This document shows positions 11,583-19,638 of a stretch of 64,000 nucleotides of DNA, piece by piece. The notes under the pieces are model-generated. The model did no database searches. It saw only the letters and a program-made list of their open reading frames with translations, and was not told where the DNA came from. Position 1 is the first letter of the stretch; every line of letters starts with the position of its first letter. Source of the stretch: Streptosporangiaceae bacterium (GTDB lineage Bacteria > Actinomycetota > Actinomycetes > Streptosporangiales > Streptosporangiaceae); NCBI GenBank assembly GCA_036375995.1, contig DASVBE010000095.1, positions 6,245 to 70,244 on the forward strand, in the 5' to 3' direction. The position numbers were made by a program, and so were the translations under genes.

Positions 11583-11593
11583 GGGCCGGCTCG

Positions 11594-11967
11594 TGGAGGT
11601 GGCGGGAATCGAACCCGCGTCCTTCGGTACTTCACCAGGGCTTCTCCGGGCGCAGCCTGCACTAGCTTTTCTCAGCCCCGGCGTTCACGCAGGCAAGTCG
11701 CCGACGGGCTCAGTCACTGTTTGGTGTCCTGCCTAGCCCCGTGACCGGGCTGGACAGTTGATCCTCCTAGCTGATGCCAGGCTCCGGGCCGGAGGAACTC
11801 CCGGGCTGACAGACTTCCTACCTAGCGGTTATCAGGCCGCGAGGCGGACGTCAGTGCGCGTTACATTGGCACTTGAATTTTGCGGTCACGGGATTAACGA
11901 GGGCACAACCGCAACCCTCGGCCCGCTTCCCCTGGATCGACTACCGAAGTCGAAACCGATCACCCCC
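11594..11967 (-). ncRNA. ssrA: tmRNA (ssrA)
   Basis: The minus strand starts GGGGGTGATCGGTTTCGACTTCGGTAGTCGATCCAGGGGAAGCGGGCCGAGG and ends ...GCGGGTTCGATTCCCGCCACCTCCA. The acceptor stem GGGGGUG/CACCUCC contains the G3:U alanine identity pair, and there is a T-arm GGTTCGATTCC. The tag reading frame is GCC AAT GTA ACG CGC ACT GAC GTC CGC CTC GCG GCC TGA TAA (ANVTRTDVRLAA). CCA is not encoded. smpB lies upstream on the same strand. Confidence 0.93.
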
Positions 11968-12065: not shown

Positions 12066-15000
12066 CTACGAAGCAGCCGGCAGGTTCTCCAGGAACGCCC
12101 GGGCCACCGGCGCGGCCGACGAGCTCGCCGACTTCGTCAGCTCCAGCACCGCGAACGCCACCCCGCCGCGGTACCCGACGAACCACGCCGCGCGCAGGCC
12201 ATGGTGCCTGGGACCCAGCCCCACGTTGCCGACCTGCCCGAAGACCGCCTGACCGCGCACGTTGGCGGACCGCGCCGCCCCGCTGGTCACCGTCTGCCGC
12301 ATCAGCGACCGCAGCGACGTCAGCACCGCGGCGGAGAACGGGCGGTTCGGGCCGGGCCCCGGCGACGGCGGGTTGGTCACCAGGACCGGGTGGTGCCAGC
12401 TCCCGGACTGCACCACGCCGGCCATCAGGGCCATCTGCAGCGGGCTGAGCGTCACCCGGCCCGCCCCGATCGTGTCCGCGGCCAGCTGCGGGACGCTGCC
12501 TGGCGTGGGCGCCGACCCGGCGCTGGCCGGGACCGGCAGCTGCCAGGGTGCCCCGATGCCGAAGTTCTTCGCCGCGCTGGTCAGCTGGGCGCTGGTCAGC
12601 CGGAGCGACAGGGTGGCGAACGCGGTCGAGCAGCCCGCGGCGAAGTCCGTGCTGAACGCCGGCTCGGGGCCGAGCCCCCGCTGCCTCGGATGGTTGGTGA
12701 AGGTCCGCCCGCCGACCTCGCTCGTGGCCATGCACGGGATCCGCGCGTTGACGTTGAAGCCGTCGCTGATCAGCGCGGCCGTGGAGACCAGGCTGAAGGC
12801 CTGGCCCGGCCGGTAGGCCCCATTCAGCGGGCTGACCTCGGGCATCCGGTGCCCCCGGTGGGTCGCCACCGCGAGGATCCGGCCGGTCGAGGGGTCGATG
12901 GCGACCAGCGCCACGGAGCCGTGCAGCGACTTGACCGCCTGGGTGGCGGCGTCCTGCACGCCCGGGTCGATGGTGGTCCGGACCGGCTGCCCCGCGTGAC
13001 CGGACCAGCGGGCCAGCACGGACATCTGGCGGCCGGCCGCGTTCTCCGCCACCACGCTGGTCGACGGCATGCCGACCAGCGTGCGCTGGAAGGCCTGCTG
13101 CAGGCCGGACAGGCCGACCGTGGCGCCCGGCTGGTAGGAAACCCCGTTGTTGCGGAGCACAGTCGCGGTCTCGGTGCCGACCCGCCCCACCACCGAACTG
13201 GCCGTGCTGTCGAACAACCGCAGCATGGCCCGCTTGATCTGCAGGCCGGGCACCTTCCTGAGCTGATGGCGCAGCCGGTGATACGCGTGCGGCGTGAACC
13301 TGGCCAGCTCGAAGAACTGCTTGGACGGCGCGGCCAGGATGTCGCCGTAGACCTCGTTGACGTCCAGGCCGGTCACGGCGGCGAGCGCGGCCGCGGTCCG
13401 GTACGGGCTCTCCAGGCTGGTGGGCATGACCCCGGCGACGAACACCCGGGTCCGCTTGGCCAGCGGCCGGCCGGCCGCATCGAGCAGCGGGGCCCGCCGC
13501 GGGGTCGTGGTGACCACGGCCAGCCGGTATCCGGGCTTCAGCGCGGGGTTGATCACGCTCGGGCTCCACACGACCTTCCACGTCGAGTGGATCCGGCGCA
13601 GCGTGAACACGCCTTCGTAGCGCCACGGCGCGCCACTGCGACCCAGGTCGATCGCGGCGTGGAAGTGCGCCTCGCCGACGTCACCGTGCCGGGTGATGTG
13701 GCCCATCTGCAGGGTGATGTCGGCCGCGTCGAGCTGCCGGTAGGCGGTCCGCAACTGGCTGGTGACCGCGTCCGGGATACCCGTGGTGTACGTGGCCGCC
13801 TCGTGGTAGTGGCCTTCCTCCCAGGCGAGCAGGAAGGCCTGCACGGTCGGCTCGACGGACGGATCCGGCGTGCTCGCCGTCACCAGCAGGTAGCCCAGCA
13901 GCCCGGCCAGCACGACGATGATGACCGCCTTCTTCGGTGTCACCCGCGGCCGCTTGACGGCGGGCCGGCCCGTCGTGGCGGGCTTCTTCGCCGGCGGCGC
14001 CCCCGGTGGCCGGCCGCCAGCCGGCCCAGGCGGTGCAGTTGGTCCAGGCGGCGCAGCCGGCCCGGACGGCGCAGTTGGCCCGGACGGCGCAGCCGGCGGG
14101 GCAGACGGCCCGCCCGGCGCGACGGGCGTCCTGGCCGGGGCCGCAGGCGGCGCGGCGGGCGCCAGCGCGGACAGCCCGGGGCCGGCCACGAGCTTGTCGC
14201 CGACCGGATGACCGGGTCGAGGGCTGACTTCCGGCGGCGCCACTGAGTTTGACCGGGTTACGGTTGGCGGCCCGCTGATCGGCATCCCGGGCGGGATCTG
14301 GCTGATCGGCGGCTGCGCCGTCAGGGACCAGTCGCCCTGCGTGATCGCCCCGGTCAGCGGACTGGCCTGCGGCTGGCCCACCGCCGGGGCCCGCGGGTCC
14401 GGTCCGGCCCCGGCCACGCCGCCCGCCCCCAGGTCATCAGCCCCCAGGTCATCAGCCCGCAACGGACCCGCAGCGGCCCGGCGCACAAAGCCCTGGCGGC
14501 CCAGATCCTGACCGGCCGCAGCCGGGCGCGGATCGCCCGGGCCCGCCGGGCCCGGCTCAGGCACAGACGGGCGCACGCCACCCCGGCTGGCCGGGTCCTG
14601 ACCAGGTGCGGCCGGGCGCACACCGCCCGGGCCCGCCAGGCCGGGCTCAGACCCAGACGGGCGCACACCACGCCGGCTGGCCGGGTCCTGACCAGGTGCG
14701 GCCGAACGCACACCACCCGGGCCCGCCAGGCCGGGCTCAGACCCAGACGGGCGCACACCACCCCGGCTGGCCGGGTCCTGACCAGGTGCGGCCGGGCGCA
14801 CACCGGCCGGGCTAGCCGGGTTCTGCCCGGCAGCACGCCCACTTCGCTCAGGCCGCCCGGCCGCGCTCCCGGCAGACCGCCCCGAGGGGGGCAGCTGCGG
14901 CGACAGGCTGGCCGGGGACCGCGGGGCCGCCGGCGGCCGGCCGGGCGGTGGCGCAGTCCAGCTGGACGGCACCGACGGCGGCGTGCTCGTGCGTGGCCGG

Positions 15001-16025
15001 GCCGGCTCAAACGGCCCGCGCATGGCGTCATCCGCCAGCGGCGCTTCCTCCGCCGGCGATGACTCCCCCGCCAGCGGCAGCGCCCCAGCGGCAGGCACCG
15101 GGCCCCAGCCAGATGACCGCCCGGCCGGCGTCCCCGGCTCGGTCGCGGCCGATTGCCCCGGACCTGGCTGGCCAGCTCGGGGCGGGACCGACAGCGACGG
15201 GTCCCAGCCAGCAGGCGAGGCGGACGCAGACGCCGCCCCAGCGCCCGGCCGCCCAGAACCTGGCTCCCCAGACCCTGGCCGGCCAGCCCGCGGCGGCACC
15301 GACAGCGACGGGTCCCAGCCAGCAGCCGAGGCCGACGCAGACGCCGCCCCAGCACCCGGCCGCCCAGAACCTGGCTGGCCGGATCGCGGCGGGACCGACG
15401 GCGGTGGGTCGGCGGGCGGCGGGGCGGGCCAGGCGGAGGGGCTGCGGGCGGGCTGCCCGGCGGGTGGCGTGGTGGCCTGCGGAGCCTGGCTGGGGGTCGG
15501 CTGGGCCGGGCCGGAAGGTTCGGGGAACCACGGGGTGGGCTGCGGCGGGAGCCAGGCGCGCGGGGTAGTGGCTCGGGTGCTGCCGAAGGCGGCGGGCGGG
15601 CCGTCGTGATCATCACCGCCGAGCGGCGGCTGGACCGTGTCGTTGCCCAGCGCGCCGGGGCCAGCCAGGCCGTTCCCCGGCCGCCCGGGCCCATCCAGGC
15701 CGTGCCCGTCCAGACCGTGCTCAGCCGAACCGTGCTCAGCCGAACCGTGCCCGGCCGCCCCGTGGCCCGAGCCATTCGGGTGCGGGCTGGTGACGGCCCA
15801 GCCGGGCGGCCGCGTGCCAGGCGCTGTGCTGCCAGGCGCTGTGCTGCCAGTCCCCGTGCTGCCCGCCGCCGTGCTGCCTGGCCCTGTGCTGCCTGGCCCT
15901 GTGCCGCCGGAGGCCGGGCCAGCGGGGGAATTCGCGGCAGGCGGAGTCTCCGCCCCGTCCTGGTCAGGGCGGGCCGGCCGGACCGGCGCGGCGTGTGAGC
16001 CGCGCTTACGCATGCGCGCCATCAC
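12066..16025 (-). CDS. PBP-fold membrane protein (NTF2-like MecA_N + class-B transpeptidase fold) with substituted catalytic motifs and ~700-aa Pro-rich repeat N-terminus
   Basis: Single uninterrupted 1319-codon ORF that starts (GTG 16025 / ATG 16022) 11 nt after the smpB stop. TM helix AVIIVVLAGLLGYLLVTAS at about residue 700. ...PTVQAFLLAWEEGHYHEAA... (MecA_N-like) and ...VALVAIDPSTGRILAVATH... (transpeptidase fold). The catalytic boxes read PGQAFS, GCSTAF and GQVGNV. The true start within the low-complexity region is uncertain. Confidence 0.75.
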   Translation of the reverse strand: MMARMRKRGSHAAPVRPARPDQDGAETPPAANSPAGPASGGTGPGSTGPGSTAAGSTGTGSTAPGSTAPGTRPPGWAVTSPHPNGSGHGAAGHGSAEHGSAEHGLDGHGLDGPGRPGNGLAGPGALGNDTVQPPLGGDDHDGPPAAFGSTRATTPRAWLPPQPTPWFPEPSGPAQPTPSQAPQATTPPAGQPARSPSAWPAPPPADPPPSVPPRSGQPGSGRPGAGAASASASAAGWDPSLSVPPRAGRPGSGEPGSGRPGAGAASASASPAGWDPSLSVPPRAGQPGPGQSAATEPGTPAGRSSGWGPVPAAGALPLAGESSPAEEAPLADDAMRGPFEPARPRTSTPPSVPSSWTAPPPGRPPAAPRSPASLSPQLPPSGRSAGSAAGRPERSGRAAGQNPASPAGVRPAAPGQDPASRGGVRPSGSEPGLAGPGGVRSAAPGQDPASRRGVRPSGSEPGLAGPGGVRPAAPGQDPASRGGVRPSVPEPGPAGPGDPRPAAAGQDLGRQGFVRRAAAGPLRADDLGADDLGAGGVAGAGPDPRAPAVGQPQASPLTGAITQGDWSLTAQPPISQIPPGMPISGPPTVTRSNSVAPPEVSPRPGHPVGDKLVAGPGLSALAPAAPPAAPARTPVAPGGPSAPPAAPSGPTAPSGPAAPPGPTAPPGPAGGRPPGAPPAKKPATTGRPAVKRPRVTPKKAVIIVVLAGLLGYLLVTASTPDPSVEPTVQAFLLAWEEGHYHEAATYTTGIPDAVTSQLRTAYRQLDAADITLQMGHITRHGDVGEAHFHAAIDLGRSGAPWRYEGVFTLRRIHSTWKVVWSPSVINPALKPGYRLAVVTTTPRRAPLLDAAGRPLAKRTRVFVAGVMPTSLESPYRTAAALAAVTGLDVNEVYGDILAAPSKQFFELARFTPHAYHRLRHQLRKVPGLQIKRAMLRLFDSTASSVVGRVGTETATVLRNNGVSYQPGATVGLSGLQQAFQRTLVGMPSTSVVAENAAGRQMSVLARWSGHAGQPVRTTIDPGVQDAATQAVKSLHGSVALVAIDPSTGRILAVATHRGHRMPEVSPLNGAYRPGQAFSLVSTAALISDGFNVNARIPCMATSEVGGRTFTNHPRQRGLGPEPAFSTDFAAGCSTAFATLSLRLTSAQLTSAAKNFGIGAPWQLPVPASAGSAPTPGSVPQLAADTIGAGRVTLSPLQMALMAGVVQSGSWHHPVLVTNPPSPGPGPNRPFSAAVLTSLRSLMRQTVTSGAARSANVRGQAVFGQVGNVGLGPRHHGLRAAWFVGYRGGVAFAVLELTKSASSSAAPVARAFLENLPAAS
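14536..14805. repeat. 3 x 90-bp tandem repeat inside the PBP-like gene (30-aa unit GVR.AAPGQDPASR.GVRPSGSEPGLAGPG)
   Basis: Units at 14536..14625, 14626..14715 and 14716..14805 differ by a few substitutions. They are in frame with the ORF. Confidence 0.9.
15181..15410. repeat. ~2.2 copies of a 96-111-bp tandem repeat inside the PBP-like gene (unit ...ASASASAAGWDPSLSVPPRAGRPGSG...)
   Basis: 15181..15291 and 15292..15387 are near-identical apart from a 15-bp indel. A partial third unit follows. Confidence 0.8.
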
Positions 16026-16036
16026 TCGCCACTGGT

Positions 16037-16501
16037 CTACCTACGCCGCCGCAACGCACGGTCAACCTCCCTGGCCGCGTCCCGCGCCGCGAGGTCATGA
16101 CGTTTGTCGTAGGACCTCTTGCCGCGGGCGAGCGCCAACTCGACCTTGGCCTTGCCGTCCTTGAAGTACAGGGCCAACGGAACCAGCGTCAGGCCACGCT
16201 CGGCGGTCTGGCTGGCGAGCTTGTCGATTTCCCTACGGTGCATCAGCAGCTTACGTGTGCGGCGCGGCTCATGGTTGGTCCACGTGCCCTGCGTGTACTC
16301 CGGGATGTGCACGTTGTGGAGCCATACCTCATGGTCGGATATCTGCCCGAAGCCATCGGTGAGCGACGCGCGCCCGGCACGCAGTGATTTCACCTCGGTC
16401 CCGGTCAGCACCAGGCCAGCCTCGTAGACCTCTTCGATGTGGTAGTCGTGCCTGGCGCGCCGGTTCCTGGCAATCATTTTCAGGCCCTGATCGGCTGCCA
16501 C
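16037..16501 (-). CDS. smpB: SsrA-binding protein SmpB
   Basis: ...[34 protein letters not shown]...[29 protein letters not shown]... Canonical position after ftsX. Confidence 0.95.
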
Positions 16502-16523: not shown

Positions 16524-17438
16524 TCACGCCCGCAGGTAGCGGCGGAGCGTCAGGAGCGACGTGGCGCCGGTCAGCACCACGCCGATGATCATCGCGAGAA
16601 CGATGACCTCGACCAGGTCGGTGGCGCTCAGCTGGACGTTGAAGGGGAAGTACTGCTGCAGCGTATCGAGCCAGAGCGACTTGACCCCAATCAGCAGCCC
16701 GGCCGCGACCAGCCAGCCGAACAGCCCCGCGATGATCCCCTCGACCAGGAAGGGCAGCTGAACGTAGAAGTTCGAGGCGCCGACCAGGCGCATGATGCTG
16801 GTCTCCCGGCGCCGGTTGAAGGCCGACAGCCGGATCGTGTTGGCGACCAGCAGGATCGCCGCGATGATCAGGATGATGGCGATAATCACCACGGCGTTCC
16901 TGGCGCCGTTGAGCAGCTTGTAGAACTTGTCCAGGATCGACGAGTCGTCCACGACCTGGTCCACCCCGTCGCGGCCGTCCACGGTCTGCGCCACGACCGG
17001 GAAGTCCGTCTGCGTGTTCCTGAGCTTGACCTGGAACGAGTCCGGGATGTCGCCCTTGGACACGGAGTTGACGAACGACTGGTTCTGCGAGAACTCCTGG
17101 CGGAACCGGGAGTACGCCTCTTCCTGCGACTCGTATCTGACGCTGACCACCTGCGGCTTCAGCTTCTTCAGGTCGGCCAGGATCTGGGCCCGCTCGGCGG
17201 CGGTGGCCGCGCCGTTGTGCTCGCACTGCGGGCTGACGCTGGACCTGGTGCAGAGGTAGATCGACAGCTGAACCCGGCCCTGCCAGTAGGTCCTGGTGTT
17301 GTCCACCTGCTTGACGAACAGCAGGCCGGTGCCGAGCAGGGACAGGCTGATCGCGACGACCACGACCAACGCGATCGTCATGGTCAGGTTCCGCCTCAGG
17401 CCAATCCAGACCTCATGGAAGACGAACTGCGCACGCAT
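16524..17438 (-). CDS. ftsX: Cell division permease-like protein FtsX
   Basis: 304 aa. N-terminal TM, a large extracytoplasmic loop and three C-terminal TMs (...[26 protein letters not shown]...). Follows ftsE. Confidence 0.93.
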
Positions 17439-17476: not shown

Positions 17477-18166
17477 TCAGTAAGCCTGACCGTAGACCCC
17501 TCGGGACTGGTCGCGGACGACCTTGCCGTACTCGAGCTCGATGACCCGCTTGCGCATGGAGTCGACGATCGCGGCGTCGTGCGTGGCCATGACGACGGTC
17601 GTGCCGGTGCGGTTGATGCGGTCGAGGACCTTCATGATGCCGATCGAGGTGGCCGGGTCGATGTTCCCGGTGGGCTCGTCGGCGAGCAGGATCATCGGGC
17701 GGTTGACGAACGCCCGGGCCATGGCGACCCGCTGCTGCTCGCCGCCGGACAGCTCGTCGGGCATCCGGTCGCGCTTGCCCTCCAGGCCGACCAGGTCGAT
17801 GACCTCCGGCACGACCTTGCGGATGAACCGCCGGGGCTTGCCGATGACCTCGAGGGCGAACGCGATGTTCTGGTAGACGTTCTTGTTCGGCAGCAGCCGG
17901 AAGTCCTGGAACACGCAGCCGATCCGGCGCCGCAGGTGCGGCACCTTCCAGTTCGTGAGCCGGGCGAGGTCCTTCCCGGCCACATGAATCCGGCCGCCGG
18001 TGGGCCGCTCCTCCTTCAGCACCAGCCGGAGGAAGGTCGACTTGCCCGACCCCGACGGGCCAACCAGGAAGACGAACTCGCCCTTCTCGACGTCAAGGTT
18101 GACGTTCTCGAGGGCAGGCCGGTTCTGGTTGGGGTACGTCTTAGTGACGTTGTCGAAGTGGATCAC
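17477..18166 (-). CDS. ftsE: Cell division ATP-binding protein FtsE
   Basis: Walker [10 protein letters not shown], signature [14 protein letters not shown], Walker [13 protein letters not shown]. 229 aa. Confidence 0.95.
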
Positions 18167-18534: not shown

Positions 18535-19638
18535 TTACGAACCCTGCTGGCGCAGCCAGCGGATCTCGGCATCGATGAACTCATCGATCTCGCCGTCCAT
18601 CACCGCCGCCGTGTTACCGGTTTCCACCCCGGTCCGCACGTCCTTGATGTTCTGGTAGGGGTGCAGTACGTAGTTGCGGATCTGGGTGCCCCAGCTCGTG
18701 GTGGTCGCACCGCGCAGCTCGGCCATCTTGGCCGCCTGCTCCTCGCGTTTGCGCTCCAGCAGCTTGGCCTGCAGCACCGTCATCGCGCTGGCCCGGTTCT
18801 GGATCTGGCTGCGCTCGTTCTGGCAGGACACCACGATCCCGCTCGGCAGGTGGGTGATCCGCACCGCCGAGTCGGTGGTGTTCACGCCCTGGCCGCCGGG
18901 ACCGCTGGACCGGTACACGTCGACCCGCAGCTCGTCGTCCGGGATGTCGATGTGGTCGGCCCGCTGCACCACCGGGATCACGTCCACGCCCGCGAACGAG
19001 GTCTGGCGGCGGCCCTGGTTGTCGTACTTGGAGATCCGCACCATCCGGTGCGTGCCGTGCTCGCCGCGCAGCGTGCCGTAGGCGTACGGGGCCTTGACCG
19101 CGAACGTGGTGGACTTGATCCCGGCTTCTTCCGCGTAGGAGGTGTCGTAGACCTCGGTCGGGTAGCCGTGCCGCTCGGCCCAGCGCAGGTAGATGCGCTG
19201 CAGGCCCTCCGCCCAGTCGGCCGCGTCGGCCCCGCCGGCCTGCGCGTTGATGGTGATCAGGGCCTCCCGCGAGTCGTACTCGCCGGACATCAGCGTCCTG
19301 ATCTCCAGCTGGTCCATCTCCTTGCGCAGCGCGGCCAGGTCCCGCTCGGCCTCGGCCCGGGCGGCCTCGTCGTTCTCGCTGTCGGACAGCTCGAACATGA
19401 TCATCGTGTCGTCGAGCCGCTGCCGCAGGCTGGCCAGCCGGGACAGCTCGCTGTCCAGGTAGGACAGCCGCCGGGTGACCGCCTGACCCTGCTCCTGGTC
19501 CTCCCACAGGGCCGGATCGGCGGCGCGTTCGCGCAGCGCGTCGGCTTCCTTGCTCATCGCGCTCGGGTCGAGCACAGCTTCCACACTGGAGAGTTTCGCC
19601 GTCAGTTCGGCGATCTCGCCGGCGGGGTCGGTGGCCAT
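18535..19638 (-). CDS. prfB: Peptide chain release factor 2 (single ORF, no frameshift site) with variant SKY tripeptide
   Basis: 367 aa. GGQ loop [22 protein letters not shown]. ...[24 protein letters not shown]... C-terminus ...[22 protein letters not shown]... Canonical neighbourhood with ftsE/ftsX/smpB. Confidence 0.93.

Follow-up and report, generated by a model that had tools for sequence, protein, structure and literature searches.

A Ser-Lys-Tyr tripeptide in place of Ser-Pro-Phe in the peptide chain release factor 2 of three actinobacterial lineages

Textbooks attribute the specificity of peptide chain release factor 2 (RF2) to its 'tripeptide anticodon', Ser-Pro-Phe (SPF), and an RF2 that carries something else at these positions raises the question of whether it is what it seems and whether it still reads UGA and UAA. 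Such a protein is encoded in a 64,000-nucleotide stretch of contig DASVBE010000095.1 (assembly GCA_036375995.1, positions 6,245 to 70,244 of the forward strand) from a Streptosporangiaceae bacterium; the whole of this stretch is referred to below as the window. Its prfB gene, located at 18535..19638 on the minus strand, encodes 367 amino acids in a single open reading frame (ORF) without a +1 frameshift and ends in TAA, and the discriminator tripeptide of the product reads Ser-Lys-Tyr (SKY). As set out below, the SKY motif is genuine and fixed, and purifying selection acts on it.

On the reverse complement of 18950..19110, the three codons are TCC (19032-19030), AAG (19029-27) and TAC (19026-24), flanked by cgg atc and gac aac cag, and the tripeptide S203-K204-Y205 (19024..19032, minus strand) is equivalent to E. 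coli S205-P206-F207. It lies in a 19-residue recognition-loop segment (18994..19050, minus strand; E. coli positions 199-217) that has the same length as in canonical RF2, and the GGQ catalytic motif (residues 248-250; 18889..18897, minus strand) is intact. Searching all PDB chains with phmmer returned RF2 chains as the best match of the window protein, with the SKY segment aligning column for column and without a gap to 'vriSPFdssgrr' of the RF2 chain 9fy1_8 (E = 6e-95). The product is identical to NCBI entry HEX6854998.1, from a soil metagenome-assembled genome (MAG) labelled 'Streptosporangiaceae bacterium'. An earlier note on this DNA had placed SKY at the SPF-homologous positions of a prfB gene in otherwise canonical surroundings. 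Both points held, the latter through the GGQ motif, the genes for FtsE, FtsX and SmpB downstream and the transfer-messenger RNA (tmRNA) gene, and every factual element of that observation was confirmed by the codon reading, the PDB alignment, the family models, the locus and the stop-codon counts.

The family models assign the protein to RF2. It scored 469.6 bits against the NCBIfam prfB model TIGR00020 (cutoff 370), compared to 246-253 bits against the RF1 models (cutoffs 400-423; TIGR00019, 246.5 vs 423.25) and 97.9 bits against the RFH model TIGR03072 (cutoff 166.65), and the SKY proteins of Glycomyces and of the Patulibacter type displayed the same pattern, above the cutoff for prfB and below it for RF1 and RFH. 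Pfam detected the RF2 architecture, with PCRF (PF03462) at residues 29-218 and RF-1 (PF00472) at residues 229-335. Alignment to E. coli RF2, whose numbering is used for residue comparisons from here on, revealed the Gly-Gly pair at the tip of helix alpha-5 and an indel-free loop with V202, R212/R213, H/Q214 and T215. The one diagnostic feature not found is the classical SP[F/Y] motif, of which the protein retains Ser but has Lys for Pro and Tyr for Phe. Since that motif is a family diagnostic and not the basis of orthology, we treat the protein as an orthologue of RF2 whose discriminator is a variant form. It shares with canonical RF2 (TIGR00020) domains 1-4, the PCRF and RF-1 domains, GGQ, the alpha-5 Gly-Gly, the loop length, Ser205, V202, R213 and T215, and the chromosomal position, and differs from it in the middle Lys, in the third residue, where Tyr is a minor known alternative, and in linked changes at positions 139 (Val to Ala) and 201 (Leu to Met).

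Two other identities were considered and excluded. The protein is not an RF1 (prfA product), as the prfA models score below cutoff and the motif is S-K-Y rather than PxT. It is not an RFH (prfH product) either, although the putative RFH anticodon, S-X-Y, also combines Ser, a variable residue and Tyr (Baranov et al. 2006, PMC1586002). RFH is about 200 amino acids long, lacks domain 1, has Gly-Pro in place of Gly-Gly and has a loop three residues shorter (PMC1586002), whereas the window protein, with 367 amino acids, domain 1, Gly-Gly and a full-length loop, has none of these features and fits RFH in the S-X-Y pattern only. In line with this, PDB RFH chains matched it only at E = 1e-15, vs 6e-95 for RF2.

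We then asked how widespread the variant is. In a collection of 5.8 billion proteins, SKY was present in 120 of the 120 best homologues of the window RF2 (83-98% identity). Among the best 150 representatives of 50%-identity clusters there were 133 SPF, 9 SKY, 2 SPT and 2 SPY sequences, one each of SEF, SQF and SAF, and 2 with a gapped loop. A degenerate DNA pattern for V-R-x-S-K-Y-D-x3-R-R-x-T-x-F, scanned over 185,579 GTDB species genomes, detected at least 119 loci; all of the matches listed encode RF2, and by sequence they form three groups. Group A, at 69-91% identity to the window protein, comprises the cultured Trebonia kvetii 15TR583 and at least about 100 MAGs labelled 'Streptosporangiaceae bacterium', Trebonia sp. 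or 'uncultured Actinomycetota'. Among the same matches, group B (62-64% identical to the window RF2) comprises Glycomyces species and Phytomonospora, and group C (44-53% identical) comprises MAGs labelled 'Solirubrobacteraceae'. Well over a hundred genomes at species level have SKY as a fixed state, among them those of the cultured Trebonia kvetii, Glycomyces, Stackebrandtia, Haloglycomyces, Salininema and Phytomonospora.

The two more distant groups were extended with queries of their own. A Glycomyces RF2 recovered SKY in Glycomyces, Haloglycomyces, Salininema, Stackebrandtia, Actinorhabdospora and Phytomonospora. All named Glycomycetaceae RF2s in this search carried SKY or SQY, and the next-best matches, from Streptomyces, Micromonosporaceae, Dactylosporangium, Kribbella and others, were all SPF. 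SQY occurs in Natronoglycomyces albus (P0285, also P0287), with N139 and a DTQK loop, inside the otherwise SKY Glycomycetaceae, and may represent either a stage on the way to Lys or a later change away from it. A group-C query placed that group in the Patulibacter clade of Thermoleophilia, with 16 SKY sequences and 3 with SKF, among these one from a P. minatonensis MAG. Two sequences with SPY, at 71-74% identity to the query, have I204 and A216 in common with it, and in one case the DSQG loop as well; the SPF relatives of the clade (73-76% identity) read VRLSPFDSANRRQTSF. Outside the actinobacterial type, S-K-F was found in two unrelated metagenomic RF2s of the Joint Genome Institute (JGI) on a His214 background (VRLSKFDAAHRRHTSF, 41% GC, and VRKSKFDSSGRRHTSF, 60% GC; contigs L127, 7526-7573, and L128, 657-704), and no S-K-Y on a His214 background was detected in 241 million metagenome records.

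The earlier note had implied that SKY is an isolated oddity that probably affects decoding across the genome. The survey instead identifies it as a lineage trait of relatives in which TGA is the majority stop codon, and SKY being common among normally terminating relatives is what that note had itself named as telling against its claim.

Several individual sequences from these searches deserve mention. Two loci, L113 (a Gemmatimonadota MAG) and L055 (a Solibacteraceae MAG), carry a group-A, Trebonia-type RF2 that is 80-81% identical to the window protein, and their contigs are probably mis-binned. In five Microflora Danica long-read MAGs (L003, L023, L062, L088, L098) prfB is split over 2-3 frames, which looks like the result of long-read indel errors rather than programmed frameshifts. 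The two S-P-T sequences, P0151 and P0179, are cluster representatives from Logan contigs and natural RF2s (RISPTDAKKRRQTTF); given that E. coli F207T is reported to read all three stop codons, the organisms concerned might run on an omnipotent RF2 or lack prfA. The S-E-F sequence, P0147 (WP_119930273.1), is a 391-residue protein of Bailinhaonella thermotolerans annotated as RF2, with a divergent loop (RVHISEFDTQRRRQTGF) and only 48% identity to the window protein, and could be a diverged paralogue, the second prfB of this Streptosporangiales member.

The three groups are taxonomically far apart: by NCBI taxonomy, group A belongs to Streptosporangiales/Treboniaceae, group B to Glycomycetales and group C to Thermoleophilia/Solirubrobacterales/Patulibacteraceae, that is, to three orders in two classes. 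We examined their relationship in neighbour-joining trees (distance trees only) of 152 RF2s, with nine columns around the motif masked and 200 bootstraps. Each group was monophyletic (A, 200/200; B, 198/200; C, 200/200), group C was paired with the SPF sequence P0261 in 200/200 bootstraps, and an exclusive A + B clade was found in 0/200. Group B is 67-70% identical to SPF sequences and only 62-64% identical to group A, and the residues flanking the tripeptide differ between groups (A, THRM..SFAGVD; B, THRV..(G/A)FAAVE; C, VHRL..AFAGVE). A single origin of SKY in A and B, by descent or by transfer, is unsupported by these neighbour-joining results. The bootstrapped trees, the taxonomy and the differing flanking residues together indicate at least three independent gains of SKY.

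Once gained, the motif has been maintained. In group A, the codons vary synonymously (TCC/TCG/TCT, AAG/AAA, TAC/TAT) while the amino acids are invariant across at least 105 loci, and the ratio of non-synonymous to synonymous substitution rates (dN/dS) of the window prfB against close relatives is 0.16-0.20. Within group B, six of the loci listed (L017, L026, L045, L050, L057, L065, L067, L078, L089, L097) use AGC for Ser205 and the other four use TCG, a switch between serine codon families at an essential residue.

What the replacement means for decoding depends on which residues read the codon. Ser205 contacts the second stop-codon base and T215 the third (PMC5776981). The discriminating residue of the tripeptide is Ser and not the third, SPY is said to occur in about a third of eubacteria (PMC3472500), and the RF2 anticodon has been written 'SP(F/Y)' (PMC1586002). 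That the whole tripeptide defines specificity, as had been claimed for this locus, is therefore too strong: according to the literature, the direct second-base contact falls on Ser205 only, and Phe and Tyr are interchangeable. In the alignments of SPF- and SKY-type actinomycete RF2s, G137-G138 and D140 of the alpha-5 tip, which reads U1, are unchanged, as are V202, R203, I204, S205, D208, R212, R213, Q214 (His in E. coli), T215, F217, the loop length and the acidic patch at 167/170/172, the source of omnipotent mutants in enterobacteria. Judged from the alignments, all residues reported to touch the codon (G137/G138, D/E140, V202, S205, R213, Q/H214 and T215) are unchanged.

The residues that do change lie beside these contacts. 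P206K and F207Y are present in all three groups. L201M/V, seen in the window as Met199 (19042..19044, minus strand), occurs in groups A and B and also in intermediates of the SPY and SAY type, one of which is 92% identical to a Streptomyces SPF protein; since the change is already present in intermediates with Tyr, it tracks Tyr207, and in Actinomycetes Leu to Met/Val covaries with Tyr at the third tripeptide position. V139A, seen in the window as Ala137 at the tip of helix alpha-5 (E. coli T139; 19228..19230, minus strand; in GGADAADW), also occurs in groups A and B, with V139 in 100/100 SPF-type actinomycete sequences and A139 in 158/159 SKY sequences; since SPY and SAY intermediates keep Val, this change tracks Lys206. 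S216A/G is found in groups B and C. Further differences that go along with the step from SPF to SKY in group C are L204I and a loop that reads DSQG instead of DSAN. The overall pattern looks like second-shell repacking around unchanged codon contacts, where for Pro206 and Phe207 the contacts are taken from statements in the secondary literature together with covariation.

One-step intermediates between SPF and SKY exist in nature in the form of SPY, SAY, SQY, SQF and SKF. The route would have consisted of single-nucleotide steps, TTC to TAC (Phe to Tyr) and CCG to CAG to AAG (Pro to Gln to Lys), and the natural SQF, SQY and SAY forms show that the intermediate states are viable.

Stop-codon usage in SKY lineages resembles that of SPF relatives. 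In the window (72.9% G+C), 33 TGA, 15 TAG and 3 TAA codons were counted among 51 ORFs supported by third-position G+C (GC3), which agrees with the earlier statement that UGA is the commonest stop here, and there was no sign of recoding in the 64 kb. Called genes in 21-kb loci ended in TGA in 17/28 cases in Glycomyces albus and 12/19 in Stackebrandtia, both SKY, and in 11/19 and 18/20 cases in SPF controls. An apparent avoidance of TGA in Glycomycetaceae (37% TGA in redundant 8-kb loci) was not upheld, with 61-63% TGA for called genes in 21-kb loci, and we dropped the lower estimate as an artefact of non-independent, orthologous genes. SKY is no indication of a change in the genetic code.

Since SKY keeps Ser and an aromatic residue and stop usage is like that of relatives, normal UGA/UAA specificity is the best supported interpretation, and we consider it probable that the SKY protein reads UGA and UAA in the canonical way, with its second shell repacked. 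The window protein would then be the ordinary, essential RF2 of an uncultured, Trebonia-related soil actinomycete, whose tripeptide drifted or was selected from Ser-Pro-Phe to Ser-Lys-Tyr in an ancestor of the whole clade. Phe to Tyr would represent the neutral SP(F/Y) alternative, accommodated by Leu201 to Met/Val, and Pro to Lys a second-shell change reached by single-nucleotide steps and accommodated by Val139 to Ala in the adjacent tip of alpha-5. The side chain of Lys206 may point away from the bases, to solvent or to the backbone of 16S helix 34 (h34)/C1054, in which case codon specificity would be kept and Lys206 would at most tune affinity.

A number of points weigh against this interpretation. 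Proline was called universal in RF2 in a 2006 survey (PMC1586002) and was invariant in 282/282 SPF-type sequences tabulated here, so that Pro206 is normally under strong constraint, and the fact that Lys took its place repeatedly is suggestive of selection and not of drift. Extra positive charge close to the decoding centre, as in E167K, E170K and E172K, is known to relax RF2 specificity, and Lys206 could make a new contact near C1054. The orientation proposed for the Lys206 side chain derives from covariation only, and SKY genomes are only presumed to carry prfA and no second SPF-type prfB.

The strongest alternative, which we nonetheless regard as unlikely, is that Lys206, together with Tyr207, is adaptive and alters stop-codon reading, for example by gaining an electrostatic interaction with the mRNA or with the backbone of 16S h34/C1054. 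Higher UGA efficiency, altered next-base dependence or relaxation to UAG/UGG could follow, and the kinetics or fidelity of termination would differ genome-wide. Lys replaces Pro in at least three SKY lineages, as well as in the SKF proteins of Patulibacter relatives and of the two unrelated metagenomic RF2s, it is strictly fixed once gained, and compensatory changes are found at the U1-reading tip of alpha-5. The SPF loop lies against the 30S head near C1054 (bioRxiv 600445). In E. coli and Salmonella, the nearby E167K, E170K and E172K raise activity at UAG and UGG, charge-increasing RF2 mutations raise release at these codons (PMC7530605), S205P weakens UGA reading, and F207T and E167K make RF2 omnipotent (PMC11903333).

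These specificity mutants (S205P, F207T, E167K, E170K and E172K), which were engineered or selected, resemble SKY in affecting the same or an adjacent loop and, in several cases, in adding positive charge; unlike SKY, which keeps Ser and an aromatic residue and is fixed in lineages that thrive, they alter the contact Ser, swap the aromatic residue for Thr or flip a conserved Glu, and they carry fitness costs. Positions 167, 170 and 172 are D167, Y170 and E172 in both SPF- and SKY-type actinomycete RF2s. Speaking further against an adaptive role, SKY lineages use stop codons like their SPF relatives, with a TGA majority and both TAG and TAA in use, the known direct codon-contact residues are all unchanged, and the window lacks any sign of recoding. 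In addition, K/F and K/Y forms replace one another in a single clade of 91-93% identity, and the middle position is taken by Q, A or E in other lineages, which suggests tolerance more than a precise new role. The more specific proposal, that Lys206 is a convergently selected new contact of RF2 with the ribosome or mRNA, beside the alpha-5 tip and C1054, and measurably changes termination in the three actinobacterial lineages, appears slightly less probable still; if true, natural RF2s with SKY would differ in function from other release factors and SKY would not be neutral.

A middle Lys has counterparts among other class-I release factors. The tripeptide of human mtRF1a is PKT. That of Plasmodium falciparum pRF1 is PKN, where the middle Lys is compatible with codon-specific release (PMC3472500). 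Unlike the window protein, pRF1 is an RF1 paralogue that reads UAA and UAG, and the middle position is naturally variable in RF1, whereas that of RF2 was thought to be invariant.

It is very improbable that the SKY gene is a paralogue that the cell could do without or that serves a specialised role, with an SPF-type RF2 encoded elsewhere doing the housekeeping. Two RF2 genes do occur in Phytomonospora endophytica, Phytomonospora sp. NPDC050363 and Dactylosporangium sucinum; these are full-length proteins, both SKY in Phytomonospora (P0299/P0305 and P0301/P0302) and both SPF in D. sucinum (P0361/P0379). Given that both copies are SKY where two exist, in Phytomonospora, a canonical back-up copy in SKY lineages is unlikely. 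None of the 82 SPF matches to the Glycomyces query bore a Glycomycetaceae name, no second release factor homologue was detected in the 64-kb window, and the TIGR00020 score above cutoff and the dN/dS of about 0.2 likewise argue against a paralogue.

The position of the gene also speaks for the housekeeping copy. In the window, prfB is followed immediately downstream by ftsE, encoding an ABC ATPase (17477..18166; Pfam ABC_tran), and then by ftsX (16524..17438; Pfam FtsX_ECD and FtsX) and smpB (16037..16501; Pfam SmpB, 211 bits), all on the minus strand. Among the matches listed, 87 of 105 loci of group A and 9 of 10 of group B preserve this prfB-ftsE-ftsX-smpB order, and in the remaining ones the ends of the sequence blocks interrupt it. 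Stackebrandtia albiflava (SKY) and the SPF species Dactylosporangium vinaceum and Actinocatenispora rupis have the order DUF6912-Aldedh-Trp_dioxygenase-Pkinase-prfB-ftsE-ftsX-M23-smpB in common, with a small gene between Pkinase and prfB in all three that has a PadR match only in the two SPF loci. Similarly, CtaG-hpf-secA-prfB is common to a Patulibacter-type SKY locus and an SPF relative. The SKY gene sits where relatives carry their SPF gene, which makes it a positional orthologue of SPF-type prfB, and the earlier assignment to a housekeeping copy in a canonical locus is borne out by this shared synteny.

Finally, although the window comes from a MAG and several nanopore MAG loci have a frameshifted prfB, a sequencing, assembly or binning artefact is refuted as the source of SKY and has a negligible probability, because the same residues occur in all of the best 120 homologues and in hundreds of independent assemblies, isolate genomes included, and because neither the synonymous codon variants with conserved amino acids nor, as had been argued before, the three nucleotide changes needed fit a base-call error.

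The remainder of the locus was also inspected. Upstream of prfB lies a gene for a 1648-residue NAD-glutamate dehydrogenase (Pfam). Further downstream, Rfam detected a full-length tmRNA gene, ssrA, at 11591..11967 on the minus strand (RF00023, 154.7 bits), although ARAGORN reported no tRNA or tmRNA gene in the whole window. Between smpB and ssrA, a 1319-residue ORF (12066..16025, minus strand) matches MecA_N, PBP_dimer and Transpeptidase, domains of class-B penicillin-binding proteins, at residues 725-1312 only. Over the N-terminal part of about 720 residues Pfam detected nothing and the second-position GC is unusually high, and the true start may be far downstream.

Taken together, our results describe what appears to be a new natural variant of RF2, since the 2006 survey called the proline universal and a literature search found no paper that combines SKY, SPF and release factor; Lys in place of this supposedly universal Pro is the element that is still unusual. 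They indicate that, in nature, only the Ser of the tripeptide is indispensable, and RF2 calls that rely on the 'SPF' motif would mislabel SKY proteins in genome annotation. The natural path from SPF through SPY and S[Q/A]Y to SKY, with L201M/V and V139A, offers material for the study of epistasis in the stop-codon reading head, and the cultured Glycomyces, Stackebrandtia, Trebonia and Patulibacter are suited to ask whether a positive charge beside the codon tunes the efficiency or fidelity of termination.

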